A stretch of DNA of 64,000 nucleotides from positions 31,183 to 95,182 of the forward strand of contig JAZQHB010000008.1 in assembly GCA_045540355.1 (NCBI GenBank), in the 5' to 3' direction. The notes beneath the pieces were generated by a model, which saw only the letters and a program-made list of their open reading frames with translations, searched no databases and was not told where the DNA came from. Origin of the DNA: Acutalibacteraceae bacterium. Its GTDB lineage: Bacteria; Bacillota; Clostridia; Oscillospirales; Acutalibacteraceae. Every line of letters starts with the position of its first letter. Position 1 is the first letter of the stretch. This document shows positions 13,177 through 62,876 of the stretch, one piece after another. The position numbers were made by a program, and so were the translations under genes.

Positions 13177-13188
13177 GGAGGTGTTTTT

Positions 13189-13869
13189 ATGGATATAAAA
13201 AGTTGCACAATTAAAGACACTAACTATCCTAAAAAGCTACTCTCCCTATCTTCTCCACCGAAGACACTGTACTATATTGGCGATATAAATATAACAGCCA
13301 AAGATATTGTCGCAGTAATAGGAAAGAGAGAAGCAAACGAAAAATCACTAACCTTATCCGAAAAAATCGGAAATGAGTTGGCAAAAAAAGATTTCATAGT
13401 TTTGAATGGATTAGCAATCGGCTGTGATACAAAAGCTATTGAAGGTGCTTTATTAGACAATGGTAAAGTAATTGCTGTTATGCCCTGTGGTCTTGATGAA
13501 ATATATCCTAAATCAAACCGTATGCTGGCAGAAAAAATCATAAAAAGCGGAGGGTGTATCATAAGCGAATATCCTTGCGGTTCAAAGCCTCAAAAGTATA
13601 CCTTCGTGGAAAGGGACAGATTGCAGGCAGGACTTGCTGATAAGGTAATCGTAATAGATGCAGAAATCAAAGGTGGAACGATGCACACGGTAAACTATGC
13701 ACTCAAATTAAGAAAAGAAATTGGGTGTATTATGGAAGATAATGCGGTATCTCCCGCAGGTAACGAATATTTATGCAAATCACAAAATTGTGATGCTTTA
13801 AACAATATTCATAGCGTTTTGACTTTCGTAAAAAAACCCGTATATAATCAGCTTTCACTATTCAGCTAG
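13189..13869 (+). CDS. dprA: DprA/Smf-like DNA-processing protein (Rossmann/SLOG domain only)
   Basis: VAVIGKREAN...LNGLAIGCDTKAIEGAL...VMPCGLDEIYPKSN...ERDRLQAGLAD...GGTMHTV matches the DprA core. Confidence 0.8.
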   Translation: MDIKSCTIKDTNYPKKLLSLSSPPKTLYYIGDINITAKDIVAVIGKREANEKSLTLSEKIGNELAKKDFIVLNGLAIGCDTKAIEGALLDNGKVIAVMPCGLDEIYPKSNRMLAEKIIKSGGCIISEYPCGSKPQKYTFVERDRLQAGLADKVIVIDAEIKGGTMHTVNYALKLRKEIGCIMEDNAVSPAGNEYLCKSQNCDALNNIHSVLTFVKKPVYNQLSLFS

Positions 13870-22269: not shown

Positions 22270-22416
22270 TAAACACTCTATAAGTAGACAAAAGCACTTA
22301 ATAAGTCTTACTTAACACTCATTCACAAGTAATAAGCACTCATTAAATGCAATTATCTACTCTTATATCAACTTAAAACACTACTTACATAACCGTAAGC
22401 ACTACTTGAAAGGAGT
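22270..22416 (+). repeat. Seven tandem 21-bp phased repeats (core tAAgCACTcaTT)
   Basis: CACT cores at 22274, 22295, 22316, 22337, (TACT 22358), 22379 and 22400, an exact 21-bp register running into the SD of 22422. Confidence 0.85.
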
Positions 22417-26894: not shown

Positions 26895-26919
26895 ATAAAG
26901 TAACAATTTGTTATTTTAT
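26895..26919. promoter_or_regulatory. Dispersed palindrome O2 (ATAAAGTAACAATTTGTTATTTTAT)
   Basis: Seen in sequence. Confidence 0.6.
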
Positions 26920-26981
26920 GTCCTATGCCATATCTCTTATATGTGGGTATAAGACACCACAAAATATCTTTTACTCTATCC

Positions 26982-27006
26982 ATAAAGTAACAAATTGTTA
27001 TTTTAT
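26982..27006. promoter_or_regulatory. Dispersed palindrome O3 (identical to O1)
   Basis: Seen in sequence, 87 bp from O2. Confidence 0.6.
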
Positions 27007-27759: not shown

Positions 27760-29109
27760 ATGGCAAAAAAATTAAGCGACGACATTGAGATTATGTCAAA
27801 AGAAGAAGTCCTTGAAAATCTCGATGCAGAAGCAACACCGAATGTAGTGGCAGAAGGCTACATACCGACAGAAGATGTGGAAGCCGAAATGGAATATCGT
27901 GACACACACCCTGTTGAAGCAGAAGGCGATGAACCCGCCGAAGAAGAAATCGTCGTAGGCAACGATCCGCTTCCGGAAGATTATGTCCCGGAAGATTTAG
28001 GTCCTGTCGAAACAATCGACGAAACAAGCAACTTGGAAAGTGCAATGGACGAATTATCGGAAGAAGACCGAAAGATTATGGAAGCATTACTTTCCAAAAC
28101 CCAGTTCTATTCAAGAAAGAACTTAAAAGCAAAGCAGTCGATACATAGGGAAATGTTCCGTTCCGAGCATATCGTAACAGCATCTCCCGACGACAAGGTG
28201 GAAACCGAGAGTACAAAGTTAATGGAAGACTTTACAATGTTAAATGCTTCCGCACAGAGCAAGCGTATCTTGGAAGGAAAGATTACGGGTTGCCACCCTG
28301 CAAATCCCGACAATCCTTTATCAACCACCCTTGCGGAAGTAAAGTTTGGAAACGGCACTTGTAAGGTTTTAATTCCCGACTATTTGCTTTTCGATTATGA
28401 AATTGGAAAATACCGCAACACTCCCGAACAGGCAAATGTGGCAGTGGCGGTTCGTGATATGATTGGCTTAACCGTAAGATTTACGGTTACACAGCTTGAC
28501 AGAGCAACCAAGACTGCATACGCAGACAGATTACAGGCATTAGACACCGACGGCTATTTTAACTATGTAAAACCTACCAAAGACGGCAAGCCCCGTATTA
28601 CCGCAGGTATGATTGCACAGGGTAGAGTAGTAAGAAGAAATAAGAAAACCGTAACAATCTGTGCATTAGGTGCAGAAAGAACATTAAGAGCCAACGCTGA
28701 TGAAAACGAAATCTGCTGGAATTATTGCGATGATTTCAGAGATATGTTTAAGGTAGATCAGATTGTAAATGTAAAAATCCTCGAAGTAAAAACGAAGGAA
28801 GTTACAAAATACAACAATAACTACACTTTGGTTAAGCCCAAGTTCAGCTTAAAGCAGACCACAGTTAATCCTACGGATAAGTATTTCGACGACTTTGTAG
28901 AAAACGGTCACTATACCTGCGTAGTTACCTCATTGGCATCTACTGGTGTCTTTGTTCGCTTACCCGATATTGACGGTATGGACTGTTTGGTTGCATATCC
29001 GAAATTCGGAGAAATGCCGATGCCCGGACAGGCAAGAGTTATTAAGATTACAGAGAAAGAAATTGATGCCAACGGCAGAAAGAAAATCTTTGGAACCTTC
29101 GTGCAGTAA
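27760..29109 (+). CDS. S1-like RNA-binding domain protein with acidic N-terminal region
   Basis: Three OB/S1-like segments (ILEGKITGC..., MIAQGRVVRR..., GHYTCVVTSLASTGVFVRLPDIDGMDCLV). Confidence 0.55.
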   Translation: MAKKLSDDIEIMSKEEVLENLDAEATPNVVAEGYIPTEDVEAEMEYRDTHPVEAEGDEPAEEEIVVGNDPLPEDYVPEDLGPVETIDETSNLESAMDELSEEDRKIMEALLSKTQFYSRKNLKAKQSIHREMFRSEHIVTASPDDKVETESTKLMEDFTMLNASAQSKRILEGKITGCHPANPDNPLSTTLAEVKFGNGTCKVLIPDYLLFDYEIGKYRNTPEQANVAVAVRDMIGLTVRFTVTQLDRATKTAYADRLQALDTDGYFNYVKPTKDGKPRITAGMIAQGRVVRRNKKTVTICALGAERTLRANADENEICWNYCDDFRDMFKVDQIVNVKILEVKTKEVTKYNNNYTLVKPKFSLKQTTVNPTDKYFDDFVENGHYTCVVTSLASTGVFVRLPDIDGMDCLVAYPKFGEMPMPGQARVIKITEKEIDANGRKKIFGTFVQ

Positions 29110-29663: not shown

Positions 29664-30695
29664 ATGAAACAGTTTATTCTTAAAATCATTATAGCAATAC
29701 TGTTAAGTATCTCTGTGATACTGGTAATTTCACTTATAGACTTGGGAACCATAGAAATACCTTTGGCAGTAAATAATTTAAGAGATAAAGTATCAGATTT
29801 CGTTGTTGAGAAAACGGAAGGGTTTATTGATACCATAAAAGAAGATATCAGTGCAGAAGGAAATAAACCAGCGGAGGTTATACTCGAAACAGAAGAAGCA
29901 TCAGAACTGGAAATACACTTCATAGATGTCGGGCAGGGTGATGCGACTTTAATAATATGTGGTGACGATGCAATGCTGATAGACGCAGGATATTGGGAAT
30001 ATGGCGAAAGCGTGGAAGCGTATGTTGATTACCAGCTGGAAGACAACCACTTGGATTATGTAATAGCAACCCACCCGGACGCAGACCATATCGGCGGTTT
30101 ATCAGAAATATTCGGAAGCGAAAGTTTAACCTGCGATAAGATATTTGTTTCGGGCTACGATAGAGATACCGGAACGATGTATTATGTAGAAGAAGCAATG
30201 AGGGAAAAAGGGTATGTATCAGAGGTTCCCAGCGTCGGCGATACTTACACACTGGGAGAAGCCACCTTTACAATCATTGGTCCGATGCAGATGTATGAGG
30301 AGTGTAATGATAATTCTATCTGTATTATGTTAGAATACGGTTCCACGAAATATCTGTTTTGCGGAGATGCAGAAGAGATTGCAGAAGCAGATATGATTGC
30401 TTCCGGTTACGATTTGGATTGCGATGTTTTAAAAGTGTCGCATCACGGTTCCAAGACATCTACCACGACAAACTTTGTGGCTTCCACCAGTCCTGTTTAT
30501 GCAGTAATCAGCGTAGGCGAAGCAAATGAATACTTCCACCCGCACGCCACGGTACTGAATGTGTTGAGAAATTATGGAATAAATGTATTCAGAACCGACG
30601 AGCAGGGATCCGTCGTTTGTACCAGTAACGGTGAAGAAATTAAATGGAATTGTATGCCAAGCACCAGCTGGCAGGCAGGAGAGGGGGCAAACTAA
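29664..30695 (+). CDS. Membrane-anchored ComEC/Rec2-type metallo-beta-lactamase-fold protein
   Basis: N-terminal TM helix; HFIDVGQGDA; THPDADHIGG; KVSHHGS. Confidence 0.85.
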   Translation: MKQFILKIIIAILLSISVILVISLIDLGTIEIPLAVNNLRDKVSDFVVEKTEGFIDTIKEDISAEGNKPAEVILETEEASELEIHFIDVGQGDATLIICGDDAMLIDAGYWEYGESVEAYVDYQLEDNHLDYVIATHPDADHIGGLSEIFGSESLTCDKIFVSGYDRDTGTMYYVEEAMREKGYVSEVPSVGDTYTLGEATFTIIGPMQMYEECNDNSICIMLEYGSTKYLFCGDAEEIAEADMIASGYDLDCDVLKVSHHGSKTSTTTNFVASTSPVYAVISVGEANEYFHPHATVLNVLRNYGINVFRTDEQGSVVCTSNGEEIKWNCMPSTSWQAGEGAN

Positions 30696-31514: not shown

Positions 31515-31655
31515 ATAACATTACATAAAAACAAAACAAGGTTTTCACACTTTGTTATAGCCTTATTTAGGCACTTAAAAAAGCAAAGGGTAGTCAGAAC
31601 TACCCTAAACCGACAAAAACAGCTAAAAATCGAAAATACGCGGTCAAAATATAAT

Positions 31656-31678
31656 AAAATAACAAATTGTTACTTTAA
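31656..31678. promoter_or_regulatory. Dispersed palindrome O5 (AAAATAACAAATTGTTACTTTAA)
   Basis: Seen in sequence, abutting a TATAAT box (31650-31655), upstream of recG. Confidence 0.6.
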
Positions 31679-33952: not shown

Positions 33953-34019
33953 TAAAATTCATATTATAATTCCGAAACCCACAAACCCAGTATTTTCTAG
34001 GGCTTGCGGGTTTTTTTGA

Positions 34020-34800
34020 CGGAAAAAATCGGTAAAAGATACGGAGTAGCGTGGTAAAAGATGCGGAGTAGTGCGGTAAAAGATACAGAGTAATTCGGTA
34101 AAATTTGGCAGGATTAAATACGGAGTAGTGCGGTAAAAGATACGGAGTAATTCGGTAAAAGATACGGAGTAGCGCGGTAAAAGATACGGAACAATTCGGT
34201 AAAATAGACGATTTAGCGGAAAAAAACAGTAAAAACAGCAATTAAAAAATAAGTGCTGAAATCGTAAGATTTTGAAAAGAATGTAAAAAAAGGGTAAAGG
34301 TACGGAAAAAATCGGTAAAAGATACAGAGAAAAACAGTAAAAGATACGGAATAATTCGGTAAAAATAGGGTTTATTACGGAGTAATTCGGTAAAAAACGC
34401 AGGAAAAACACCATATGATTACCCAAAAACTACATAAAAATAAAAAAAAGAGATAGAAAAAGCCTTACTTACGGAGAAATTCAGTAAAAGATGCGGAGTA
34501 ATTCGGTAAATATATGATTTATAACGGAGAAAATCGGTAAACATAATGTAGAAATATTCCTTGAAAAAAGTAAAGTTAATGAGCCAAAGTATTGTATTAC
34601 CGAAAATATCCGCTATAAAATCGTAAGTTTTTGAAAAAATCAATATTTAGTGTTTTTATAATTTCAACACATACAAAATAAGAAAAATCCCCCACCTTTT
34701 TAACGGAAAAAAACAGTAAAATAGTAATTGACAAGGTATAATAGTAAGCCTTATAATAAAATTGTTTTTAACGGAAAAAAACAGTAAAAAGCAAATGAGG
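34020..34800 (+). repeat. Iteron array (at least 15 copies of CGGTAAAAGATACGGAGTAnnn, 22-bp phase); putative theta-type oriV
   Basis: GGTAAAAG cores at 34031, 34053, 34075, 34097, 34132, 34154, 34176, 34198, 34314, 34336, 34358, 34389, 34483, 34505 and 34536. Degenerate copies flank the rep promoter. Confidence 0.85.
34700..34790 (+). promoter_or_regulatory. rep promoter (TTGACA-N17-TATAAT) bracketed by a direct repeat TTAACGGAAAAAAACAGTAAAA
   Basis: Seen in sequence; the arrangement is typical of Rep autoregulation. Confidence 0.6.
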
Positions 34801-34811
34801 GGATTACAAAA

Positions 34812-36032
34812 GTGGAAGAAAACAAAAAAAATGAGGAAGATACTTCTTTGGCGATTTATGTTGAAAAAGAAGATATAGTTGCAAAAATATGCAATGTTAT
34901 ATTAAAAGCAAAATATAAAACAACGCTATTGGAACAAAAAGTTTTACTTATGTCGCTTGCCCGTATCAGTAATTATAAAATAGAAAAAGGAACCGGGGCA
35001 TTAGTATCTACGCTTGATGTTGCTGATATAAAAAATTGTATCGGAAGAAAAGGAAACTCATTATATGATGAATTGGAAGAAGTAGCCGATAATATGACAG
35101 ACCGCAAAATTGCATTTTCGGATCCCGAAAAAAAAGAGTTTGATTATATGTCGCTTATCATTCGTGCAACTTGTAAAAACGGTAAATTTAAGATTTATTA
35201 TAATCCGTATTTAAGAAATTACATATTAGACATCACTACTAACTATACACCACTTATGGAAAAGATAACAATGTCTTTTAATAGCCTTCATTCGTCCCTG
35301 CTTTATCAAGCATTAAAGCAAAAAGCATATACACCGGGCGAAAAGATTGATAAAACAAGTTTTGAAATAAGAACTTATGAGTTCGAGTACAATCTTGCGG
35401 AACTTTTACTGGACCTTGGATTAGTTGATGCAAATGCAGAAGAGGTAAAAAATATACTTAATAAATCAAAGACACCGGACTACGAAAAAGCTGTGGCAGT
35501 TGCAAAAGAAAAAAAATATAAAGCGTGGTATGATTTTGAAAGATATTCACTTCGTCCGGCAATTAAAGAAATCAATGAAAAAACAGATTTGCGGGTATCA
35601 TACGAAACCATAAAAAGAGGTAGAGGGGGAAAAATAACCGCATTATTATTTACAGTAGATGTAATACCTACGATAAGAACCGATTTACTCTCAAAAAAAG
35701 AGGAAGAAGTAATCACGATAACCGAAGACCAAAAAGACGAATACATAGACTGGTTATCAGACCTTATCGAAACGCCGTTAAAAGTGAAAGACCTGCGTAC
35801 TATCGCAGAAGAGGCAGGATATTCGCAGGAGAAAGCAGAAAAAGCCTACGCCATATTAAAATCCACTCCGCAGGTTGATAATGTGGTAGGATTTATGATT
35901 TCGGCGATCCGTAACAATTATTCCAGTTCCGGCGGGCAAAGCAATAAGGAAAGCAAAAAGAGCGCAAACGATAACATAATGAAGCAAGATTATGATATTG
36001 AAGCAATCGAAAAGGATATTTTGGCAAATTAG
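34812..36032 (+). CDS. rep: Plasmid replication initiator (Rep_3/RepB-like)
   Basis: Immediately downstream of the iterons. N-terminal KAKYKTTLLEQKVLLMSLARI resembles initiator winged-helix proteins. GTG start behind GAGGGG. Confidence 0.7.
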   Translation: MEENKKNEEDTSLAIYVEKEDIVAKICNVILKAKYKTTLLEQKVLLMSLARISNYKIEKGTGALVSTLDVADIKNCIGRKGNSLYDELEEVADNMTDRKIAFSDPEKKEFDYMSLIIRATCKNGKFKIYYNPYLRNYILDITTNYTPLMEKITMSFNSLHSSLLYQALKQKAYTPGEKIDKTSFEIRTYEFEYNLAELLLDLGLVDANAEEVKNILNKSKTPDYEKAVAVAKEKKYKAWYDFERYSLRPAIKEINEKTDLRVSYETIKRGRGGKITALLFTVDVIPTIRTDLLSKKEEEVITITEDQKDEYIDWLSDLIETPLKVKDLRTIAEEAGYSQEKAEKAYAILKSTPQVDNVVGFMISAIRNNYSSSGGQSNKESKKSANDNIMKQDYDIEAIEKDILAN

Positions 36033-36126: not shown

Positions 36127-36237
36127 TTGAAAAGTCAAAAAGTATATACTACAATATAAACATATTATTCCTTTTAGGAAATCAACAAATTTGGGCTGAC
36201 AAAAAGAGAAATCTAGCGATAGGTTTCTCTTTTTTTA
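36127..36237 (+). promoter_or_regulatory. Promoter-leader-terminator module, copy F
   Basis: TTGAAA-N17-TACAAT; CTGACAAAAAG; hairpin AGAGAAA..TTTCTCT plus T7. Confidence 0.55.
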
Positions 36238-36298
36238 TGTCGTAATTAACCTTAAAAACTGTAACAAACAAAATATAAAAGAAAGGTAAGGTAAGATT

Positions 36299-36880
36299 AT
36301 GGAAGAAAGGAAGGTACAGTTAGCAGATGTATCGGATTTGATTGATGTGGCATATCAGCAAATATCCGATGCGACAAAAAAACTCACTCCGGGGCTTCTT
36401 GATAAGCAAATGGCTTTTGCATTAAGCAAGAAACATATCGGCTGTGAGTACACCGTTAAGGAACTGAATGAGAGAAAACCGAAGGAACGGTACTCGTTTT
36501 ATTCTTTTACGGAAGTAAAAATTGCTTTGCAGGAGTTTTTTGGGGACACCTACAATTTAAAGCGTATAGCGAAGCAGTCAGTGATGCTTGATGAAGGCGA
36601 TAAGTTTTCAGAGAGTATTGATTGCGGTATGAAACTGGGGGAATTTTACGATACCCTAAACAACACCGTAACAGAAACCTCAATTTTAGAGGTAACAATG
36701 AAAGTAAGACCGTGGGGAAACCCAAACAGCACCACGGGATTGCCTTTCAATATTGTGGGTTTTCGATTACAGGCTGACGAAGAAGGTCAGTGGGTAAGAG
36801 AAATTGAACCTGCAAAAGAAATAAAGGAAGAGGAATGGGCTGAATGGAAACAAATGAATATTTTTCAGTTCATACGCTAG
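36299..36880 (+). CDS. Hypothetical protein (193 aa)
   Basis: First ORF after module F; no motif recognised. Confidence 0.65.
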   Translation: MEERKVQLADVSDLIDVAYQQISDATKKLTPGLLDKQMAFALSKKHIGCEYTVKELNERKPKERYSFYSFTEVKIALQEFFGDTYNLKRIAKQSVMLDEGDKFSESIDCGMKLGEFYDTLNNTVTETSILEVTMKVRPWGNPNSTTGLPFNIVGFRLQADEEGQWVREIEPAKEIKEEEWAEWKQMNIFQFIR

Positions 36881-36890
36881 GAGGTGTTTT

Positions 36891-37136
36891 ATGGATTATG
36901 TAATTATATCCAAGAAAGAACGCCTGCTGATGCGTGAAACCCTTGGACTTATGGCGTGGACGCATAACAGAAAAGTGCGTTACGCCCCAAAAAACCATAG
37001 CCTTGGTACCGATGCGGATTTTAAGCATTTGGTAGAGATAGGTTATGCAAAAAAGGAACCTTCCGGCGGTTATTCATTAACTGCCGAAGGTGTTTCTTTT
37101 GTAGAAACAGATATTAGAGCAAAAGTAATATTATAA
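36891..37136 (+). CDS. Hypothetical protein (81 aa)
   Basis: SD TAGGAGG. Confidence 0.6.
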   Translation: MDYVIISKKERLLMRETLGLMAWTHNRKVRYAPKNHSLGTDADFKHLVEIGYAKKEPSGGYSLTAEGVSFVETDIRAKVIL

Positions 37137-37150
37137 TTTGGAGGAAGAAA

Positions 37151-37585
37151 ATGAATAAAGTAATTGAAAATTTATTTGAAAAAAAGAAAGAGCAGGAAAC
37201 ACAATTAAAAATTTTACAAAAAGAGATGTCTTCTATTGAACAAATGTTGTTTGAAGAAATGACAAAAGAAACCAAACTTTACGAAAGTGTCGTAAAAAAC
37301 AATATGGCAGACATAATTTCAATAATACAAAAAAATGGGCTGGAATTTACTAATTATAGAACCGATAATGTTGTATCTATTGAAGTTTCAAGAAACAGCT
37401 ATAAGGCTCATATATTCATAAAGGACGGTACAGTAGTTACGGATTTAACAACATCTGATGTTTATAATAATGACGGATATTCAAAAGATATACTGTCAAG
37501 AACTCAAATAATGGTTAATAGTGATATTATTCCTTATTGTGAAAAAAACAAATTAAAATATGATAAAAACAACATTGATAATTGA
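37151..37585 (+). CDS. Hypothetical protein (144 aa), coiled-coil-like N-terminus
   Basis: SD GGAGGAAG. Confidence 0.6.
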   Translation: MNKVIENLFEKKKEQETQLKILQKEMSSIEQMLFEEMTKETKLYESVVKNNMADIISIIQKNGLEFTNYRTDNVVSIEVSRNSYKAHIFIKDGTVVTDLTTSDVYNNDGYSKDILSRTQIMVNSDIIPYCEKNKLKYDKNNIDN

Positions 37586-37588
37586 CAG

Positions 37589-37622
37589 TAAAAGGGCATA
37601 CCTCACGGTGTGCCTTTTTTAT
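37589..37622 (+). terminator. Intrinsic terminator
   Basis: AAAGGGCATA..TGTGCCTTTTTT. Confidence 0.7.
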
Positions 37623-37636
37623 TGAGAAAATAGTGC

Positions 37637-37748
37637 TTGCAATTTTCTCAATAATATTGTAAAGTATACTTGTAACATTACAACGACAAAAAAAGGCTAA
37701 TAGACGGAAGAAACTCCATAGGGGGTATCTTCCCTTTTTTTGTTGTCA
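37637..37748 (+). promoter_or_regulatory. Promoter-leader-terminator module, copy D
   Basis: TTGCAA-N17-TAAAGT, ATACTTGTAACAT, CGACAAAAAAAGGCTAATAGACGGAAGAAACTCCATAGGGGGTATCTTCCCTTTTTTTGTTGTC. Confidence 0.65.
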
Positions 37749-37756
37749 AAACTAAA

Positions 37757-37874
37757 TAGCAAGCACCGAACCCGTATAAAACGATGGTGTAGGGGAGGCT
37801 TGTAAGTAACAAAAAACTTATCACATTAAGAAAGGAGCCGTAAAAAAAGAAGAGTACGGCAAAGGTAAGAACTT
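37757..37874 (+). promoter_or_regulatory. Conserved structured 5' UTR element, copy 1
   Basis: Blocks CAAGCACCGAACC, GGTGTAGGGGAGGCTTGTAAG and GTACGGCAAAGGTAAGAA are identical to 62779-62873, with divergent loops between them. Confidence 0.55.
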
Positions 37875-38195
37875 ATGAAAAAAATGAAAATGTTGGTATT
37901 GACATTGATATTGGCACTGTGCGTAGTGCCGATGCTGGGTAGTGTAACAGCGGAAGCCTTCGCAGAACCCGCTGACATACGCTATTCGCCCGGTTATTGT
38001 CCTGTGTGGGACAGTACCGATTTCTCCTCCGAGCCTATCGGGGAGATCAGTGGTATCAATACCACATTTCTACTGTTAGAAACGGTAGATACATACTATG
38101 CACTCGTCCGGACGGCTGACGGAACAGAAGGCTATGTGCCTTTGGATTTCTGCCAGCTGACAACCCCGCTTGAACCTGCGGTTGCCGGACTGTAA
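37875..38195 (+). CDS. Small secreted SH3b-like protein
   Basis: Signal peptide MKKMKMLVLTLILALCVVPMLGSVTAEA. YYALVRTADGTEGYVPLDF resembles a bacterial SH3 domain. Confidence 0.55.
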   Translation: MKKMKMLVLTLILALCVVPMLGSVTAEAFAEPADIRYSPGYCPVWDSTDFSSEPIGEISGINTTFLLLETVDTYYALVRTADGTEGYVPLDFCQLTTPLEPAVAGL

Positions 38196-38338
38196 AAATA
38201 ACAACGAGAATGGGGCGGGCGAATGTCTGTCCCTTTCTTGATTTTGGGGCTACTCCCTCAAAGTTTAACTGTTGGGAGTGGCTACCCTTGCAGTTGATTG
38301 TTTTTGCAAAGCCAAACACAGCAACGGAGGAAAACCCT

Positions 38339-38683
38339 ATGAAGATTACAAAAAAAATGAAAGGTGCGGAAAGCACCAAAACACTTCTTCTTGGAAGAGA
38401 GGAAGTAAAAGTGAAAGATGCGGATATGGATAATATATTGGCATCGGTATTCGGAACACCCGACATCAGTTTAAGCACGGAAGCCAGTATTGAATATTTG
38501 CTTGCCCGTAACAATCTGATGCAGGGTTTAAGAATTTTTCTTGGTAATCCTTTCATTACGCAGAATATTCTTTCTGCAAATGAAGAAGGGATAACCATAG
38601 ATGCAAAGAAAATAAACAAAGAAACCGCTGATACTATCGTGCGGTATGCTTTGTTTGGAACACAGTGGGAAGATGCCGTATAG
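38339..38683 (+). CDS. Hypothetical protein (114 aa)
   Basis: Start moved to ATG 38339 behind ACGGAGGAAAA. Confidence 0.55.
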   Translation: MKITKKMKGAESTKTLLLGREEVKVKDADMDNILASVFGTPDISLSTEASIEYLLARNNLMQGLRIFLGNPFITQNILSANEEGITIDAKKINKETADTIVRYALFGTQWEDAV

Positions 38684-38722
38684 CGTCTTCCTTTTATTGT
38701 AAAAAAGAGAGGAGGGGTATTT

Positions 38723-39058
38723 ATGAAGAATACCAAAATCAACTATCTCTATCGTGATGCAGATAATTATAAGATGCACAACGAAGTGGTAGTGGAAGGG
38801 CAGTTCACGCCCAAAATGAAGGAAACTATAAAAAATGCTCTTGATTGTGGAGAGTATTTTATTCCTTCGCAGGTGGGTTTACCCGAAAAGCGTTTCGATG
38901 ATTGTACCGATGCAGACCACTGTTATTTTGAATTAGATGTAGACAATGATTTTGTCGAAACTGATGAAGAACCAACAGTGGAACTCACAGCAGAAGAATT
39001 GACAAATGCCTTTGCAAATGTCCCTTACTGGGACTGTGACAAGGAAGGGGGATTATAG
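38723..39058 (+). CDS. Hypothetical protein (111 aa)
   Basis: SD GAGGAGGGG. Confidence 0.6.
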   Translation: MKNTKINYLYRDADNYKMHNEVVVEGQFTPKMKETIKNALDCGEYFIPSQVGLPEKRFDDCTDADHCYFELDVDNDFVETDEEPTVELTAEELTNAFANVPYWDCDKEGGL

Positions 39059-39060
39059 AT

Positions 39061-39258
39061 ATGACCGGAAAAGAATGGTTATTGAAAAATCCTGCCCTTA
39101 TGGAAGGCATTGCAGAAGCAATCGTTTGCGGAGAAAAGCAGTATTTTGCTCCGGTACCGCAGGAGTACGCTGATGAAATCGTTGACATTCTTATAAATGT
39201 CGAAGAAGTCGTAAATATTGAGAAAACCACAGAAGGATTATGGATTTATTTCCGTTAA
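39061..39258 (+). CDS. Hypothetical small protein (65 aa)
   Basis: SD GAAGGGGG; tightly coupled to the previous gene. Confidence 0.55.
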   Translation: MTGKEWLLKNPALMEGIAEAIVCGEKQYFAPVPQEYADEIVDILINVEEVVNIEKTTEGLWIYFR

Positions 39259-39288
39259 TTCTTCTGCAAAGAAGGGAGAAGGTTGATT

Positions 39289-39762
39289 ATGAAAACATCG
39301 ACAAGAGAGCGTATCGTTCTAAATGCTCTTGCAAGTAATAACCTTAATGAAATGGAAAATGTATATATTATGTGTTCTTCCTATCCGGTTAAGGGTATTG
39401 ATAGACTACGGAGAGAAATCCTGCGTAGAAGAGGAGAGGGTATGCTTTTTGTGATCCTTAACACGCAGGAAGCAAAGAAGTGGGTAGAAAAAAATATGTA
39501 TGAAGCAGACCTTTGCTTACTTCCTTTGGAAAGAGCAGTGAATACAGGGCTTTTGATACCCATTGATAAAGGATATTATGTAGTAAAAGAAACCGTTACT
39601 AATCAATGTACTTGGGTAATTGAAGAAGTACGGAAACTGACTGCCGAAGAAATGGCAGAAAATAATCTGTACTTACCGTATCGGTTTACTGCCCGTATAA
39701 AAGAATGTCCCGATGATTACGAAGGGGCAAGAGAAATTAGTGCAGGTTTTGATTTGCACTGA
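39289..39762 (+). CDS. Hypothetical protein (157 aa)
   Basis: SD GGGAGAAGG; start moved to ATG 39289. Confidence 0.6.
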   Translation: MKTSTRERIVLNALASNNLNEMENVYIMCSSYPVKGIDRLRREILRRRGEGMLFVILNTQEAKKWVEKNMYEADLCLLPLERAVNTGLLIPIDKGYYVVKETVTNQCTWVIEEVRKLTAEEMAENNLYLPYRFTARIKECPDDYEGAREISAGFDLH

Positions 39763-39836
39763 TAAAGATATGTAGTATAATAGGGAGGAGGACGAAAGTT
39801 CTCTTTCCTTTTTATTTAAGAGAGGAGATATTTTAT

Positions 39837-40538
39837 ATGAACATTGAAAAAGCGAGAGCTGTTGCAAAGAATTTTCTTTGGCTGGATATGGAACGGCACC
39901 CGAAATTTCCGTTTGTAGTAACGCACCCGGTCTTTGAAAGTTCTTATATGATGAACAGCAATAAAGAATGTTTCGATGCGTTTGAAGATGAAGAAAAATT
40001 CAGAGAGCATCGAAAGAACTATGAAAAGCAGATAGATAAGGTCACTGATTTTTCAGAATTTCTTTCTTGGCTTATTCGTAAAGCGTATATTCTTACCTTT
40101 TTGAAATTTGCAGAGGACGAAGGTGCAATCACAACCCAAGAAGCCTGCAAATATTTGGTAGAAAATTGGTGTCGTATCGAAAACATCGGCACTGATGTCA
40201 ATGTTTCAAAAGCGAGAATACGCAAATGGCTGTTGCAGATTGACCGTGAAGAGATGCTGGAAGAGAATGAATACAAAAGATACTGTTATCTTTCTGACGA
40301 GGTAACGCTGTATCGTGGTGTCCGGTCTGACAGTAAAGAAGCAATCTACGGATTTTCGTGGACGGCAAGCAAATCTACGGCAGAGTTCTTTGCTACTCGC
40401 TGGGGCGATGAAGGAACTGTTTATGAAGCTAAAATCAAGAGAGAAGATATTTTCTTTACGGAATATGGCAGAAATGAACAGGAATATATCGTAGATTATA
40501 AGAAATTATATGATGCAAAAGAAATAAAAGAAATATAG
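39837..40538 (+). CDS. ADP-ribosyltransferase-like protein (R-S-E type)
   Basis: C-terminal TLYRGV (Arg), GFSWTAS (S-x-T) and NEQEYIV (E-x-E) occur in the canonical order. Confidence 0.5.
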   Translation: MNIEKARAVAKNFLWLDMERHPKFPFVVTHPVFESSYMMNSNKECFDAFEDEEKFREHRKNYEKQIDKVTDFSEFLSWLIRKAYILTFLKFAEDEGAITTQEACKYLVENWCRIENIGTDVNVSKARIRKWLLQIDREEMLEENEYKRYCYLSDEVTLYRGVRSDSKEAIYGFSWTASKSTAEFFATRWGDEGTVYEAKIKREDIFFTEYGRNEQEYIVDYKKLYDAKEIKEI

Positions 40539-40548
40539 GAGGTATCAA

Positions 40549-40845
40549 ATGTACGACTGGATTATATGGTACGGAGAACCGCAGACTTGCTTTATGAGAA
40601 GCGGTTATAAGTACCCGACAGAAGACAAAGCAAAGTTTGAAGGCGAAGACTTTGCAAGAAGAACAGCAGGAAGTTTTATGGGACAGCCCGAACCTTATCC
40701 TAATAACCGCGTTGAAGTTATAAAGTTAAAAGACGATGATGTGGCGGTATATCTGATGAAAAAGTATGGATTGGAAGATAGTTATGTAGCGTCCTTGACA
40801 GAAATTTCAGAAGAACGGGTTGCACAACTTCGTAAAAAGATGTAA
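40549..40845 (+). CDS. Hypothetical protein (98 aa)
   Basis: SD TAGGAGG. Confidence 0.6.
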   Translation: MYDWIIWYGEPQTCFMRSGYKYPTEDKAKFEGEDFARRTAGSFMGQPEPYPNNRVEVIKLKDDDVAVYLMKKYGLEDSYVASLTEISEERVAQLRKKM

Positions 40846-40850
40846 TTATA

Positions 40851-40881
40851 ATCCACTCTCTTAATGAGGGTGGATTTTTTT
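40851..40881 (+). terminator. Intrinsic terminator (ATCCACTCTC-TTAAT-GAGGGTGGAT plus T7)
   Basis: Seen in sequence. Confidence 0.8.
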
Positions 40882-40885
40882 ATTG

Positions 40886-41000
40886 CTTGCAAAACAGTGT
40901 ATATTATACTATAATAACCTTGTAACATATTTTTGACAACAAAAAAAGACTAACAATGAGGAAGAACTCCGTAGGGGTATCTTCCTTTTTTTTGTTGTCA
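40886..41000 (+). promoter_or_regulatory. Promoter-leader-terminator module, copy A
   Basis: TTGCAA-N17-TATAAT, AACCTTGTAACAT, GACAACAAAAAAAGACTAACAATGAGGAAGAACTCCGTAGGGGTATCTTCCTTTTTTTTGTTGTC. Confidence 0.7.
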
Positions 41001-41029
41001 CAATCACAAAAAAGAGAGGAGTGTTCAAT

Positions 41030-41998
41030 ATGAACCGTAAAGAAATTGAAATGGAATTGATGAAACACGATAGTACCGTTTTATCTTTTCCGAACCGAGG
41101 ACCGTGGGGTTCGTCACAGTACAGAGGAAATTGCAGTGGCTACATTCACGCTTTCTTGATATGGAAATACCGTGTTGAGAAAATGGCTGAATTATTCAGC
41201 GGTAGCGGGACGGGATATGATGTTTGCAAAGATATGGGAATTTCATATGTCGGTGCCGACTTAAATCCTACTCCCGTGCGTCCGGGAGTATTGAATGTAA
41301 ATGCAATTACAGATGATGTTCCCGAAGAGTTTATGGACGCGGATATGCTGTTTATGCACCCGCCTTATTCAAACATCTGCAATATCAGTTGGGCGGGCAA
41401 GCATTACGCTGATCCTACGGGAGAACTTGCAAGGGCAGATTTAGGGAATATGAACTGGGAACAGTTTATGTCTACCTTAAACGCTATCGTAATGAAATAC
41501 TATTCCGCTATGATGAATGGCGGTAAAATGAGTATTTTAATGGGCGATGTGCGAAGAAAACCCATTGGCTTTAAGAGTATGTTTGCTGATATTGTCAAAC
41601 CCGGGCAGTTAGAGCAGGTAATTATTAAATTACAGCACAATACTGTGTCCGGCAGAGAGAACATCTCATACGGGGCAAGGAATTTCGTACCTATCGAACA
41701 CGAATACCTTATGGTACTCAAAAAGATTGCACCCTATCTGATTGATTTTTCACTGCCTACAAAGCACGAAATTGACATCAGAGATAGTAAGAGTGCAACT
41801 TGGAGAGATGTGGTTTATGCAGTAATGCAGAAGATAGGTCACGATGCACCACTGGAAGCAATCTATGCAGAAGTCGAAGGACATAGCAAATGTGCTACAA
41901 ACTCTGAATGGAAAGCAAAAATCAGACAGACACTCCAACAAAGCGATAAGTTCGTCAATGTTTCATACGGTGTATGGGCGTTGGCAAAGGTAGCGTAA
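41030..41998 (+). CDS. Orphan DNA methyltransferase (amino-MTase type) with C-terminal winged-helix-like domain
   Basis: Motif I ELFSGSGTG; motif IV-like MHPPY. The C-terminal ...ATWRDVVYAVMQKIG...EWKAKIRQTLQ...YGVWAL resembles Mrr-N-type wHTH. No adjacent endonuclease. Confidence 0.7.
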   Translation: MNRKEIEMELMKHDSTVLSFPNRGPWGSSQYRGNCSGYIHAFLIWKYRVEKMAELFSGSGTGYDVCKDMGISYVGADLNPTPVRPGVLNVNAITDDVPEEFMDADMLFMHPPYSNICNISWAGKHYADPTGELARADLGNMNWEQFMSTLNAIVMKYYSAMMNGGKMSILMGDVRRKPIGFKSMFADIVKPGQLEQVIIKLQHNTVSGRENISYGARNFVPIEHEYLMVLKKIAPYLIDFSLPTKHEIDIRDSKSATWRDVVYAVMQKIGHDAPLEAIYAEVEGHSKCATNSEWKAKIRQTLQQSDKFVNVSYGVWALAKVA

Positions 41999-42016
41999 GG
42001 AAGGAGGGCAAAGCTG

Positions 42017-42361
42017 ATGAAGAGAGCAGACATCGAAGAACGCTTAAAAGATAAGCGTTTTTCAAATTGGAAAGAAGCAGGTAGTATATTACTGCTTGAT
42101 TTAGTAACCAAAGATATTATTGAAATATCCAAAGGCTACGGCGACAATCTTTTACCCGAAGATTACGAGGCTGGGTACGACGCATACTTGAATATTGAAG
42201 TGTGGGAGTACGATAGTCCGGGATTTACGGAAAAGGACGGAGGAATGATTATGTATAAGTCGGAGGTGTGTGATTTAGCCGAAAATTTATACGGTGCAGT
42301 AGAGAGGGCGGTTGCAGAAGTCGGAATTAAGGACTTTATGGCAATCGCTTTATATGATTAG
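42017..42361 (+). CDS. Small acidic protein (114 aa)
   Basis: SD GGAAGGAGGG. Confidence 0.6.
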   Translation: MKRADIEERLKDKRFSNWKEAGSILLLDLVTKDIIEISKGYGDNLLPEDYEAGYDAYLNIEVWEYDSPGFTEKDGGMIMYKSEVCDLAENLYGAVERAVAEVGIKDFMAIALYD

Positions 42362-42371
42362 GAGGAAAGAA

Positions 42372-42875
42372 ATGAAGAAAACATTATTTATTGTGACTTC
42401 TGTTATTTTTACAGAATATGCAGAAGTAGGACTTGAAGCAGTGAATGTAAAACCTTTTGCTACAAGGGACGAAGCTAATGATTTTGTGCTTAATACACTT
42501 GCAAAAAATTGGGTGGAAAAAAATAAAGGTACCATAGAAGAAAATGGTGGCTTGCCCGAAGATTTCTACAACGATATTGAAGAAATGGAAGACTTCCTTA
42601 TCCGCTTGGAAGAAAACGGGTACCACTCGTTTACTTTTGATATTAAGGAAGAAGAAATTGACTTTTCAGAAGTATACTTCGCCGAAAAGTGCTGGCACAA
42701 GGACGATATTGCGTCTGAAATTATTGGTGCCGGATATGAAGCTACCGAAGAAAATATCAACGAAGTGCTTAATACGATGCAGGCGAAAGGTTATATGTCA
42801 GTTCTGCTCGATTGCACCGATGCGGAATGGGATATTATTGACCGTGCCGTAGAAGAAACATTGGGAGGTAAATAA
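42372..42875 (+). CDS. Acidic protein (167 aa)
   Basis: Start moved to ATG 42372 behind TAGGAGGAAAG. Confidence 0.6.
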   Translation: MKKTLFIVTSVIFTEYAEVGLEAVNVKPFATRDEANDFVLNTLAKNWVEKNKGTIEENGGLPEDFYNDIEEMEDFLIRLEENGYHSFTFDIKEEEIDFSEVYFAEKCWHKDDIASEIIGAGYEATEENINEVLNTMQAKGYMSVLLDCTDAEWDIIDRAVEETLGGK

Positions 42876-42878
42876 GAT

Positions 42879-43271
42879 ATGAGAGAAATACTATTTAAAG
42901 CAAAGCGAATTGATAATGGAGAATGGGTGGAAGGCTATTATGTTAAAACAGGAGAAGCAAGTTACATAGTAGTTCCATATTCACAAGCAGATATTTCGGG
43001 AGCAGAAGGTAGTACCATTGAAGTAGATGCAAACACCATCTGTCAATTTACAGGACTTACAGACAAGAACGGCAACAAGATTTGGGAGAATGATATTGTG
43101 ATAGGAAGAGAAGGGTATTGCGGAAATTCAAAACTTCCCACAAGGGAAATCAAGTTTAAAGTTGAATATTTCCATTGTTGCTATCGGTGGTTAGATAATT
43201 CAGATATGTATGAATTTGAAGTGATTGGCAATATCATTGATAACCCGGAATTGATGAAGGAGGGAAAGTAA
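42879..43271 (+). CDS. YopX-family protein
   Basis: ILFKAKRIDNGEWVEGYYV...ICQFTGLTDKNGNKIWENDIV is the typical YopX signature. Confidence 0.8.
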   Translation: MREILFKAKRIDNGEWVEGYYVKTGEASYIVVPYSQADISGAEGSTIEVDANTICQFTGLTDKNGNKIWENDIVIGREGYCGNSKLPTREIKFKVEYFHCCYRWLDNSDMYEFEVIGNIIDNPELMKEGK

Positions 43272-43273
43272 TT

Positions 43274-43651
43274 ATGGAACACAAACAGATTATTTACGGG
43301 GAGTATGTACTTACTCCCTGCCAAAATGCGTTCAATGAGAAAACATCGTATTGGCTTTCAAAGAAAGACCACACGATTGCAGTCTATGCGTTTACGCCTA
43401 TGGACGCAAAGGATTTGAAAGAAATGACGACTGATGAAAGTATGCAGTCGTACATTAGCCACTTTGAAGAAAAAGCAGGTGCCAAGACAAAGAATGAAAT
43501 TATCAGTATGCTTCGTGAGATGCAGAAGGAAACGGCTAAATGCGTAGGCTTTATTGCAGGTACCGTTTCACAGCTTTGGGTAATCCGGGAATTGCTTGGA
43601 ACCAGTATCGAAAAACTTGGTGGCGAAAGTATTGAGATAAGAATTGAATAA
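43274..43651 (+). CDS. Hypothetical protein (125 aa)
   Basis: SD GAAGGAGGGAAAG. Confidence 0.6.
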   Translation: MEHKQIIYGEYVLTPCQNAFNEKTSYWLSKKDHTIAVYAFTPMDAKDLKEMTTDESMQSYISHFEEKAGAKTKNEIISMLREMQKETAKCVGFIAGTVSQLWVIRELLGTSIEKLGGESIEIRIE

Positions 43652-43664
43652 GGAGGGTGCAGAG

Positions 43665-43946
43665 ATGTATTTATTGGAAGCAGAAGTGTACTTCTTGGAA
43701 GTGGAAAAAAGCAGAACCTTTAAGGTATATGCTCACACTCTCGAAGATGTAAAAACAATGAAAATTTCGGAACTTATCTTAAAGGCAGGTTCCGAATTAG
43801 GTATTTCAAAAAGCGATGCAGTCGTTTTCTGTTCTTATACGCTCAATGGAGAATATGTAGACAGCGACGAATACTTCGTTGAATATACCGAGGAAAAAAC
43901 AATGTGGGAGGGCAACGCTTATGGTAGGTCAAATGTCGCTGTTTGA
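43665..43946 (+). CDS. Hypothetical protein (93 aa)
   Basis: Start moved to ATG 43665 behind AAGGAGGG. Confidence 0.55.
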   Translation: MYLLEAEVYFLEVEKSRTFKVYAHTLEDVKTMKISELILKAGSELGISKSDAVVFCSYTLNGEYVDSDEYFVEYTEEKTMWEGNAYGRSNVAV

Positions 43947-44295
43947 GTTACTTACTCCTGCAAAAGAAGGTTGCCTTGTTACCTTTGACGAAGACATCAA
44001 CGAAATTTGTCGTAGATTATCTTCATTTGCTGAAAAGCAAGGTATAAGTACGGGCAAAACAGAATTTTCCATTTGGGATCACGCCAAAGAATACGGGTAC
44101 CGATTGGATTACACTCTGAATGTAACAAAAGAGGTCTTAACAGACCTCTTTTTTGCAGAGTTACAGGAGATTGTAGATTTTGCAAAAACTAAAAACATCG
44201 AACTCTCGCCTATGACATCATTGTTTTGGCGGGACGGAACAGCGTCTATGTATGTGTTTAGCACATATTTAGACAGCAGAAAGAAACGGAGGTAG
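43921..44295 (+). CDS. Hypothetical protein (124 aa)
   Basis: Start moved to ATG 43921 behind GGGAGGG; 26-nt overlap with the previous ORF. Confidence 0.55.
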   Translation: MVGQMSLFELLTPAKEGCLVTFDEDINEICRRLSSFAEKQGISTGKTEFSIWDHAKEYGYRLDYTLNVTKEVLTDLFFAELQEIVDFAKTKNIELSPMTSLFWRDGTASMYVFSTYLDSRKKRR

Positions 44296-44300
44296 AGTTT

Positions 44301-44453
44301 ATGAGTAAGATAGAACTCACAGAGAAGGAATTAAAAGAACGGGAAAAGGCTATAAAGTCTGACAAAACCAAATATTTCTATGATGAAAATGGAAATGAAT
44401 ATTGGTGGAGTAAAGACGATTACAAAAAGCACTACACCCGTGACGAAGGATAA
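44301..44453 (+). CDS. Small ORF (50 aa), not in the ORF track
   Basis: Own translation MSKIELTEKELKEREKAIKSDKTKYFYDENGNEYWWSKDDYKKHYTRDEG; SD ACGGAGG. Confidence 0.45.
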   Translation: MSKIELTEKELKEREKAIKSDKTKYFYDENGNEYWWSKDDYKKHYTRDEG

Positions 44454-44499
44454 TTGTATCAAGAAGGGAGTGGCTACGGTCACTCTCTTTTTTTATAGC

Positions 44500-44608
44500 T
44501 TGAATATTTCGTGAAACTATATTATAATAGCCTTGTAACGGCAAATAACAAAAAATTGACTAACAAAGAGGAAGAAATCCTACGGGGTATCTTCCTTTTT
44601 TGCTGTCA
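44500..44608 (+). promoter_or_regulatory. Promoter-leader-terminator module, copy C
   Basis: TTGAAT-N17-TATAAT, AGCCTTGTAAC, TTGACTAACAAAGAGGAAGAAATCCTACGGGGTATCTTCCTTTTTTGCTGTC. Confidence 0.65.
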
Positions 44609-44637
44609 AAATCAAAAAAGAAAGGGGGTACTTTATT

Positions 44638-45249
44638 ATGGGTAAAGTATCTAAAAAAGCAGTGTTCCTTGCTTACAAAAAAGGAAAAATTTTAATCAAA
44701 AGCATTAACGGAATTATGTTTGCGTGTATCGGCAATTACAGACTGGAGTTTGATAAAAAAGATGCAGATATGACATTATTTGATTATGTGCGTAAACACG
44801 ATGCACAGAAATTAACCGATTTAATGTACGAGGCAATCAGTAATTATATCGAAACGGGTGAGTTTACAGAAGGACTTTTCGACTTATTGTGTCCTTACGG
44901 AGAGTTAAGTATCACAAAAGAAATGATTGCAGAGGCTTATCAGACCGGATTTATCCGTATTGCAGAGGAAGACGAAGAAATTGTTGCTGTAATAGGAAAT
45001 AGTACAATTTTCCTTACAGGCGATAATGAAGGAAAGATGTCGGCAGAAGATTACCTCAAATGTTTCACAGCGGAAGAGATTATTGTGGAAATCGACAAAA
45101 TACTTCGGGACTATCCTTTTATGAGTAATGAGGAAGATTATATCTATTTCTCTAATTCTTGGATCGTAATGGAGGAAGCTATAAGTAATTACCTTGCGGA
45201 AAACTCCCAGTTGAAAAAAACTGGTAATGGCGTGGTAATCGAAGAATAA
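44638..45249 (+). CDS. Hypothetical protein (203 aa)
   Basis: SD AAAGGGGG. Confidence 0.65.
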   Translation: MGKVSKKAVFLAYKKGKILIKSINGIMFACIGNYRLEFDKKDADMTLFDYVRKHDAQKLTDLMYEAISNYIETGEFTEGLFDLLCPYGELSITKEMIAEAYQTGFIRIAEEDEEIVAVIGNSTIFLTGDNEGKMSAEDYLKCFTAEEIIVEIDKILRDYPFMSNEEDYIYFSNSWIVMEEAISNYLAENSQLKKTGNGVVIEE

Positions 45250-45256
45250 CAAATAA

Positions 45257-45303
45257 CAAAAAACCTTTTGCAAAGCCGACGGGCAATGCAGAAGGTTTTT
45301 TTA
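45257..45303. terminator. Bidirectional terminator between convergent genes
   Basis: A-run, AACCTTTTGC..GCAGAAGGTT, T-run. Confidence 0.75.
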
Positions 45304-46936: not shown

Positions 46937-46962
46937 ATAAGCAACTGACAAACAACAATTTT

Positions 46963-46986
46963 ATAAAGTAACAAATTGTTACTTTT
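46963..46986. promoter_or_regulatory. Dispersed palindrome O6 (ATAAAGTAACAAATTGTTACTTTT, best-symmetric copy)
   Basis: Located in the 5' UTR between the promoter and ATG 47012. Confidence 0.65.
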
Positions 46987-62778: not shown

Positions 62779-62876
62779 CAAGCACCGAACCTAATAAGTA
62801 GGTGTAGGGGAGGCTTGTAAGAACACAATAAAAAGAAAGGACCGCACCACGACGGGTACGGCAAAGGTAAGAAAAA
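62779..62876 (+). promoter_or_regulatory. Conserved structured 5' UTR element, copy 2
   Basis: Same three identical blocks as 37760-37871, ending at the start codon. Confidence 0.55.

Follow-up and report, generated by a model that had tools for sequence, protein, structure and literature searches.

Positions 36299-45249 of a 64,000-nt window (the whole stretch of DNA that was analysed; positions refer to it unless stated otherwise) carry an array of 19 closely packed open reading frames (ORFs) on the plus strand. These encode 50-325 amino acids (AA), and nearly all are preceded by a Shine-Dalgarno sequence. The window corresponds to C8:31183-95182, C8 being a contig of a 3.1-Mb draft genome. 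Since the contig has a 141-bp terminal overlap, it represents a circle, with a size of 105,037 bp and 38% G+C. An earlier, sequence-only reading had described the 19 ORFs, placed them directly after the replication region and interpreted them as a plasmid leading region with anti-defence content. Number, orientation and placement of the ORFs are correct: the array begins directly 3' of a replicon composed of 22-bp iterons (33997-34790) and, directly behind these, the gene of a Rep3-type replication initiator (34812..36032, plus strand; Pfam matches Rep3_N 7.6e-17 and Rep3_C 2.7e-15).

According to Pfam, the plasmid codes for a VirB4-like ATPase, a VirD4-type coupling protein, a C39-like hydrolase, a sortase, a thioester/SpaA pilin-like adhesin and ParM. 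A VirB6-like protein is also present. Further genes encode YqaJ, an AAA_5 ATPase, a DUF3854/zinc-ribbon primase-like protein, a tyrosine recombinase, a RecG-like helicase and RecD2. ParA, ParB, the single-stranded DNA-binding protein (SSB), NrdDG, topoisomerase III, RNase H, an HNH protein and a VWA protein were recognized by eye in the translations. More than 100 genes have no known function, and the plasmid is almost wholly unannotated. Because its nearest relatives are contigs of metagenome-assembled genomes (MAGs) of Lachnospiraceae, the element is taken to be a conjugative-type megaplasmid from a gut or rumen bacterium of this family.

All genes and modules of the array described in the following lie on the plus strand, and ORFs without a functional name are designated by their order. 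Operon 1 is headed by a degenerate module (36127..36247), which comprises a promoter (TTGAAA-17-TACAAT) and a leader hairpin (RNA fold z = -4.0). Behind it lie o1 (36299..36880; 193 AA, no Pfam or PHROG match), o2 (36891..37136; 81 AA, basic, pI 9.3) and o3 (37151..37585; 144 AA). A canonical module of promoter and leader hairpin (37640..37755) heads operon 2 and is followed by o4 (37875..38195; 106 AA), o5 (38339..38683; 114 AA, with 38339 as the probable start), o6 (38723..39058; 111 AA, acidic, pI 4.19), o7 (39061..39258; 65 AA, acidic, pI 4.26) and o8 (39289..39762; 157 AA). The N-terminal segment of o4, read directly from the sequence, resembles a signal peptide, and the protein is probably secreted. 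Ahead of o4, a 5' untranslated element of ~120 nt was observed, of which a second copy exists at 62779-62876.

A short variant of promoter and hairpin (39753..39809) is located ahead of the gene for an ADP-ribosyltransferase-like (ART-like) protein (39837..40538; 233 AA), in which a helical N-terminal domain is joined to a C-terminal R-S-ExE beta domain; o10 (40549..40845; 98 AA) comes next. The operon of the DNA methyltransferase (MTase) is headed by the second canonical module (40887..41007). The MTase itself (41021..41998; 325 AA) has the motif I GSGTG, an invariant HPPY and a C-terminal winged helix. It is followed by o12 (42017..42361; 114 AA, acidic, pI 4.34), o13 (42372..42875; 167 AA, with 42372 as the probable start), a YopX-family protein (42879..43271; 130 AA), o15 (43274..43651; 125 AA), o16 (43665..43946; acidic, 93 AA after revision of the start from 43644 to 43665), o17 (43921..44295; ~124 AA, start revised from 43879 to ~43921) and o18 (44301..44453; 50 AA). 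The third canonical module (44500..44617) heads o19 (44638..45249; 203 AA, acidic, pI 4.52), and a bidirectional terminator hairpin (45258..45301) closes the array. With three canonical modules, two variants and terminators between the operons, the earlier count of four module-headed operons is essentially right.

For an assessment of gene reality, a sister contig from a Lachnospiraceae MAG (L001), whose MTase is 93% identical, was compared. L001 keeps the order of the array and has syntenic orthologues, o15 among them, for 15 of the 19 ORFs, with AA identities of 75-96% and dN/dS values of 0.06-0.31. The most constrained gene is o1 (0.06); the values of o18, o4 and o2 are 0.10, 0.16 and 0.31, respectively. 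Rep3 (0.08) and the RecG-like helicase (0.05) are in the same range. Because of the syntenic orthologues and these ratios, the 15 ORFs are genuine genes under purifying selection. The remaining four (o3, o10, o17 and o19) are lacking in L001, where YopX is diverged and duplicated and ~4 kb of other genes take the place of the o19 region. Therefore, the array gains and loses whole genes among close relatives. Closer relatives of the array were not found in a metagenome scan, in which no MTase had an identity above 68%.

The promoter-leader modules have a constant layout: TTGCAA, 17 nt, TATAAT, then CCTTGTAACA, then GACAACAAAAAAAGACTAACAATGAGGAAGA..TCTTCCTTTTTTTTGTTGTC. Eleven near-identical copies, all on the plus strand, are spread around the whole circle, and three more are found at orthologous sites of L001. 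In plasmid coordinates, copies are at 5807, 6512 (before yqaJ), 8275, 12792 (before ssb), 17031, 20225 (before the recD2-like gene) and 28258, and in window coordinates at 37734, 40986 (before the MTase gene), 44594 and 63291. The -35 and -10 boxes, the CTTGTA after the -10 box and the hairpin positions are invariant among the modules. The module RNA is predicted to fold as a terminator hairpin, its U-tract being paired to an A-tract located upstream (z ~ -4). A scan of the window with Rfam matched no family.

An Frpo-like promoter active in single-stranded DNA (ssDNA) was considered for the modules and rejected: the -35 and -10 boxes are upstream of the hairpin and unpaired, and the ssDNA fold pairs the leader only. 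The modules are ordinary duplex promoters with a leader hairpin, not Frpo-type ssDNA promoters. The genes headed by them look like one attenuation or antitermination regulon. Because the same module heads each of them, ssb, yqaJ, the recD2-like gene and the MTase operon are probably switched on together, the leader hairpin being the likely point of control by read-through or antitermination.

A palindrome, AAAGTAACAAATTGTTACTTT, was further observed at several operon promoters of the window (26895-27006, 29428, 31648-31676, 46957-46985 and 57821), among them the promoters of the recG-like and recD2 operons. Its half-site GTAACA occurs in every leader module. The palindrome probably serves as the binding site (operator) for a global repressor of the plasmid.

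For the MTase, an exhaustive homologue search yielded a family of 798 representative clusters. In 36 full-length members, the GSGT motif for AdoMet, D80-L81, H113-P-P-Y116, K203-x-Q205-x-N207 and E228 are strictly or almost strictly conserved, and G61 is invariant in the family alignment as well. In the array protein, motif I reads FSGSGTG. PF01555 is matched by 28 of 36 homologues (best 4.7e-11) and the DpnI_C winged helix by eight of 36; compared to PF01555, the motif order is permuted, with motif I before motif IV. The PADLOC model for type II MTases (MTase_II) matches the array protein at 4.1e-16. A search with the family profile found PDB entry 2zie, a putative modification methylase (1.9e-09), and matched the C-terminus to forkhead and DpnI winged helices, whereas single-sequence searches of the PDB with the MTase gave nothing significant. 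No relevant paper was found in a literature search for the 'HPPY' motif. From these profile matches, the protein is assigned as a DNA methyltransferase with permuted motif order, an unusual, family-wide HPPY and a C-terminal DNA-binding winged helix.

The sequence-only reading had called this MTase an orphan, which agrees with our results. PADLOC, applied to the 23 proteins encoded at 36.3-46.8 kb, returned MTase models only and no nuclease, and across 80 homologous loci no conserved nuclease-like neighbour was found. 'Orphan' here means without a recognizable nuclease partner; a nuclease may be hidden among the uncharacterised ORFs. A defence island was considered for the array and discarded on the same PADLOC result.

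The MTase family is present on 902 PLSDB plasmids, of which 792 (88%) are typed as conjugative. The commonest neighbours across the 80 genomic loci are SSB (15 loci), primase-like proteins (13), ArdC-like proteins (12) and Dam (12). At other Lachnospiraceae loci, the MTase gene is only a few kb away from homologues of the C8 genes for SSB, the primase-like protein, the AAA_5 ATPase, YqaJ, RecD2 and the RecG-like helicase. Because this neighbourhood of SSB, primase, ArdC, Dam, YqaJ and RecD2 is recurrent, the MTase is assigned to a conserved toolkit for DNA processing and establishment of conjugative plasmids. In C8, this toolkit is scattered around the circle, each piece behind the same module, and the small genes beside the MTase are lineage-specific filler.

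The interpretation as a leading region was examined next to this evidence. In leading regions such as those of F and IncI1, the genes point towards the origin of transfer (oriT), and ssb and a primase gene are typical markers. On C8, a distance of 41-54 kb separates the array from ssb and the primase-like gene. Uniform orientation had been taken as a hallmark, and indeed all 19 ORFs are on the plus strand, yet the same is true for 81 of the 100 plasmid ORFs of ≥ 100 AA. Because of this proportion and the 11 modules around the circle, neither orientation nor modules are specific to the array. As for the check proposed earlier, namely oriT and transfer polarity, no oriT was located on the 105-kb circle. 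No relaxase family was detected in plasmid ORFs of ≥ 100 AA using Pfam or in ten large or unannotated proteins using NCBIfam, and a regular expression search of all ORFs of ≥ 150 AA found no HUH or three-histidine motif. A 383-AA protein encoded between DUF5697 and the coupling protein, i.e. in the 'relaxase slot', has four relatives only, all hypothetical, and its AF2 model (pLDDT 39) is unusable. A literature search for DUF5697 found no paper.

Between virB4 and the DUF5697 gene, an AT-rich spacer (22270-22416) with phased repeats of ~21 bp and a CACT core was observed. If oriT were located at 22.27-22.42 kb and the minus strand were transferred, the array would enter the recipient after ~82 kb. 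With the opposite polarity, it would enter after 14-23 kb, but on a strand unusable as a template; in leading regions, transcription proceeds from the transferred strand (PMC11541004). The gene-direction rule would be obeyed and the leading-region reading rescued only if oriT were placed just right of 45.25 kb and the minus strand were the one transferred; nothing marks an oriT at this place. In an IncC plasmid with a known relaxase, a member of the MTase family is found ~37 kb downstream of mobH, on the relaxase side.

With respect to anti-defence content, family and context lend support to the idea for the MTase only, and none of the small proteins matches a known anti-defence family. ArdA, ArdC, KlcA and Acr families are not found on the plasmid, and Dam is absent from it too. 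The anti-defence islands in plasmid leading regions (Samuel et al. 2024, PMC11541004) resemble the array in that small co-oriented genes, an orphan MTase and uncharacterised proteins are found on a conjugative plasmid. In contrast to these islands, the array has no oriT or relaxase as an anchor, no Frpo- or ssi-type ssDNA promoters, no homologues of ArdA, KlcA, PsiB or Acr and no ssb nearby, and its orientation and promoter modules are common to the whole plasmid. A classical leading region, which would enter the recipient first, serve as a template for transcription while still single-stranded and carry anti-restriction or anti-defence functions, is thus regarded as decidedly unlikely, despite the uniform orientation, the orphan MTase, whose relatives neighbour ArdC and SSB in Firmicutes elements elsewhere, and the many small uncharacterised and acidic proteins. 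The probably secreted o4 would also misfit an intracellular anti-defence role. The case warns that orientation and small ORFs alone are insufficient for the label 'leading region', since both traits are replicon-wide here.

Two other plasmid types carry the same MTase family. The IncC or SXT-R391-type backbone block bet-exo-VWA-adenine methylase (NZ_CP100354.1) has a member of this family with 34% identity over 96% of the protein, together with co-oriented genes for Bet, Exo, an AAA ATPase, DUF3150, a VWA protein, a cytosine methylase, a toprim protein and dozens of small hypothetical proteins. Counterparts on C8 are YqaJ, the AAA_5 ATPase, the VWA protein (by eye), SSB and the primase-like protein. 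Unlike in IncC, where the block has its position relative to the MobH relaxase gene, this set is dispersed around the circle of C8, on which no relaxase is recognized; each operon has the same promoter-leader module, and the host phylum differs. The Parageobacillus plasmid NZ_CP063416.1 is fully co-oriented and has type IV secretion genes in addition to numerous small hypothetical ones; its MTase gene is located after ArdC and before Dam and a primase. MOB-suite detects no relaxase on it and types it as non-mobilizable, which parallels C8 with its lack of a detectable relaxase. C8 differs by the absence of ArdC and Dam, and its MTase is flanked by lineage-specific small acidic proteins and YopX.

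A recurrent co-oriented set of genes for SSB, AAA_5 (CobS-like), CobT/VWA, YqaJ, DUF7768, RecD2 and the MTase was further observed in Firmicutes elements, i.e. in four gut metagenome contigs (L132-L135) and in C8. The same conserved supermodule is present in an IncC plasmid (L085), there with bet and exo.

Two further array proteins had been given names in the sequence-only reading. YopX was identified correctly: the protein matches PF09643 with 1.3e-13 and 51.5 bits (cut-off 22.4), residues 8-127 being aligned to positions 4-128 of 128, and phrog_8684 with 4e-31. The R-S-E ART-like call is reasonable: R160 (YRG), S174 (SWT) and E214-Q-E216 are invariant in all six known sequences, which are close relatives only. 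The AF2 model (pLDDT 80) has top PDB matches which nearly all belong to the ART superfamily (Tpt1/KptA, the ART-like domain of CNFy, a PE-like toxin, PARP, TreTu and ParT), but at E 0.12-2 and TM ~0.2-0.3 these are not significant. Among the viral models of BFVD, an uncharacterised Gordonia phage protein was matched with 7.3e-10. Pfam gave no match, ART-PolyVal included, and single-sequence PDB searches gave nothing significant. The protein matches phrog_4776 (function unknown; 1.9e-20). It is plausible but unproven that it is an ADP-ribosyltransferase; judged by motifs and fold, it would probably modify a host or competitor target with NAD+. A toxin-antitoxin pair of the ART-like protein and o10 was considered and dropped. 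Because L001 has the ART-like gene, 96% conserved, without o10, the latter is not an obligate antitoxin-like partner.

A Logan contig of 27 kb (L081) contains 40 co-oriented small genes in 17 kb. It encodes a homologue of the ART-like protein with 57% identity, a Lar_restr_allev protein and an HD protein, and the window ORFs 56738 and 60551 have homologues on it as well. L081 is a mosaic that is distantly related to the 36-64 kb region.

These matches bear on a phage origin, in which a small-ORF block of the early or moron type, as found after the replication module of temperate Firmicutes phages, would have been recruited by a plasmid whose genes for DNA metabolism are phage-like. Matches to PHROG families exist for YopX and for the ART-like protein, relatives of the latter occur in phages of Mycobacterium, Gordonia and Lysinibacillus, and L081 combines its 40 small genes with the ART homologue and the Lar-like protein. 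The plasmid also carries YqaJ, SSB, the primase-like protein, RecG-like, RecD2, HNH, NrdDG and topoisomerase III (the last two by eye). Nevertheless, we consider such an origin quite unlikely. Pfam scans of the plasmid ORFs found no capsid, terminase or lysis genes; 17 of the 19 array proteins have no significant PHROG match; and a nucleotide search of the array against the 50,697 phage records of INPHARED gave no match. The same was true for the plasmids of PLSDB at the nucleotide level. The MTase family occurs overwhelmingly on plasmids, and on conjugative ones, which also speaks against a phage origin.

Several strongly acidic small proteins had been put forward as DNA mimics. The excess of acidic products is real: eight of the 19 have a pI below 4.6, compared to ~7% of chromosomal ORFs of 120-330 AA. 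With an automatic ORF set, which has 16 of the 19 array genes and some spurious ORFs in its background, the values are 6/16 for the array and 11% for the other small plasmid ORFs (Mann-Whitney p = 0.003). An acidic ORF of 69 AA upstream of the array, at 30695, also exists as described. The net charges are -16 for o6, -12 for o12, -25 for o13 and -16 for o19 (pI 4.16-4.52), o13 being the most acidic product with a pI of 4.16. The strong negative charge is therefore present, but acidity alone is not diagnostic of DNA mimics such as ArdA and Ocr. No acidic array protein matched an entry of Pfam, PHROG or PDB, including ArdA (PF07275) and Ocr (PF08684), and single-sequence PDB searches with three of them gave nothing significant. 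The protein o13 is lineage-restricted; a search of 400 further genomes from the same family gave a single match (E 4e-4), and o13 thus appears essentially unique to the plasmid lineage. Should an activity against defence systems exist in the acidic proteins or the ART-like protein, these would represent new families; no finding here shows such an activity.

In contrast to o13, the o6 family is common in gut Firmicutes elements and comprises at least 104 clusters in gut metagenomes. In a widespread element, an o6-like gene is part of a co-oriented array with SSB, an AAA_5 ATPase, a CobT-like protein, an AbiE pair, YqaJ, DUF7768 and RecD2. One relative of o6 (P0171) is fused to the polyvalent-protein domain LPD28 (3.4e-08). 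Domains of polyvalent proteins, ART-PolyVal and LPD, were reportedly described by Iyer and colleagues in 2017. A resemblance to such proteins exists, as the model of the ART-like protein also weakly matches BFVD entries annotated as ART-PolyVal or large polyvalent protein. The C8 proteins, however, are small, have a single domain and no ART-PolyVal match at the level of Pfam; the link consists of one fusion and non-significant folds.

The mixed nature of the array proteins (basic with 81 AA, secreted, acidic, neutral) could also mean that, the MTase aside, passengers without a common theme (replication helpers, a regulator or a secreted factor, for example) have gathered at a permissive site beside the origin. 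Presence and absence do vary gene by gene between the sister plasmids, and in 59 further MTase loci the other array genes are missing, except for single matches to o5, o6 and YopX. On the other hand, all 15 comparable genes are under purifying selection, the shared and conserved heading module argues for co-regulation, and chance is an improbable cause of the excess of acidic proteins. We therefore rate a heterogeneous cargo as unlikely.

The explanation we prefer, held with somewhat more confidence than doubt, is that of an accessory array with fast turnover within a plasmid-wide, co-regulated gene set for DNA processing and establishment, on a circular 105-kb conjugative plasmid. The array would then be one sector of plus-strand operons extending over the whole plasmid and not an island defined by the position of oriT. 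These operons share a conserved sigma-70 promoter and a leader predicted to fold into a terminator-like hairpin. The MTase, as the sole conserved backbone gene of the array, most likely methylates the DNA of its own plasmid, and this self-methylation would, considering family and context, protect the plasmid against restriction in new hosts. Besides the ART-like gene, the remaining genes code for lineage-restricted small proteins, one probably secreted, one of the YopX family and several acidic, which are kept by purifying selection and yet are gained and lost between sister plasmids.

Several points weigh against this explanation. The array MTase matches PF01555 with 3.5e-05 and 24.3 bits only, which is below the gathering cut-off of 26.7. 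Its catalytic motif is HPPY instead of (D/N/S)PPY, His and Tyr being invariant in the 36 homologues. The fold matches of the ART-like protein are not significant, as given above. Co-regulation by the modules is derived from sequence conservation alone. Finally, a functional lead is missing for 15 of the 19 array proteins; hence, 'accessory' is a description and not a mechanism.

A bolder version may be added, to which we assign a low probability: the establishment genes (ssb, yqaJ, the recD2-like gene, the MTase gene, the ART-like gene and dozens of small ones) would form a single early regulon, in which at least 11 modules are released by one plasmid-encoded factor. Such a regulon would be the Gram-positive counterpart of Frpo-driven leading expression without proximity to oriT, on a plasmid with a relaxase of an undescribed kind.

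Little is understood about the large plasmids of gut Lachnospiraceae, and three results are of use for their annotation: the array is real and under selection, it has a quick turnover between sister plasmids, and of its genes only the MTase is part of the toolkit conserved among conjugative plasmids. The most interesting features are outside the array proper, namely the probable plasmid-wide regulon of promoters and leaders and the lack of a known relaxase.

Two observations concern other parts of the window. At 12619-13869 and 29664-30695, ComF-like and DprA-like genes (both by eye) and ComEC-type metallo-beta-lactamase genes (Lactamase_B, Pfam) are found; these represent functions of DNA uptake and processing, which are unusual for a plasmid. 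Just 3' of the coupling protein, a protein of 449 AA is encoded (27760-29109). Its N-terminal third is very acidic, and its C-terminus has weak S1/OB-like repeats (NCBIfam rpsA models, ~1e-6); it might be a transfer protein which binds ssDNA or RNA.

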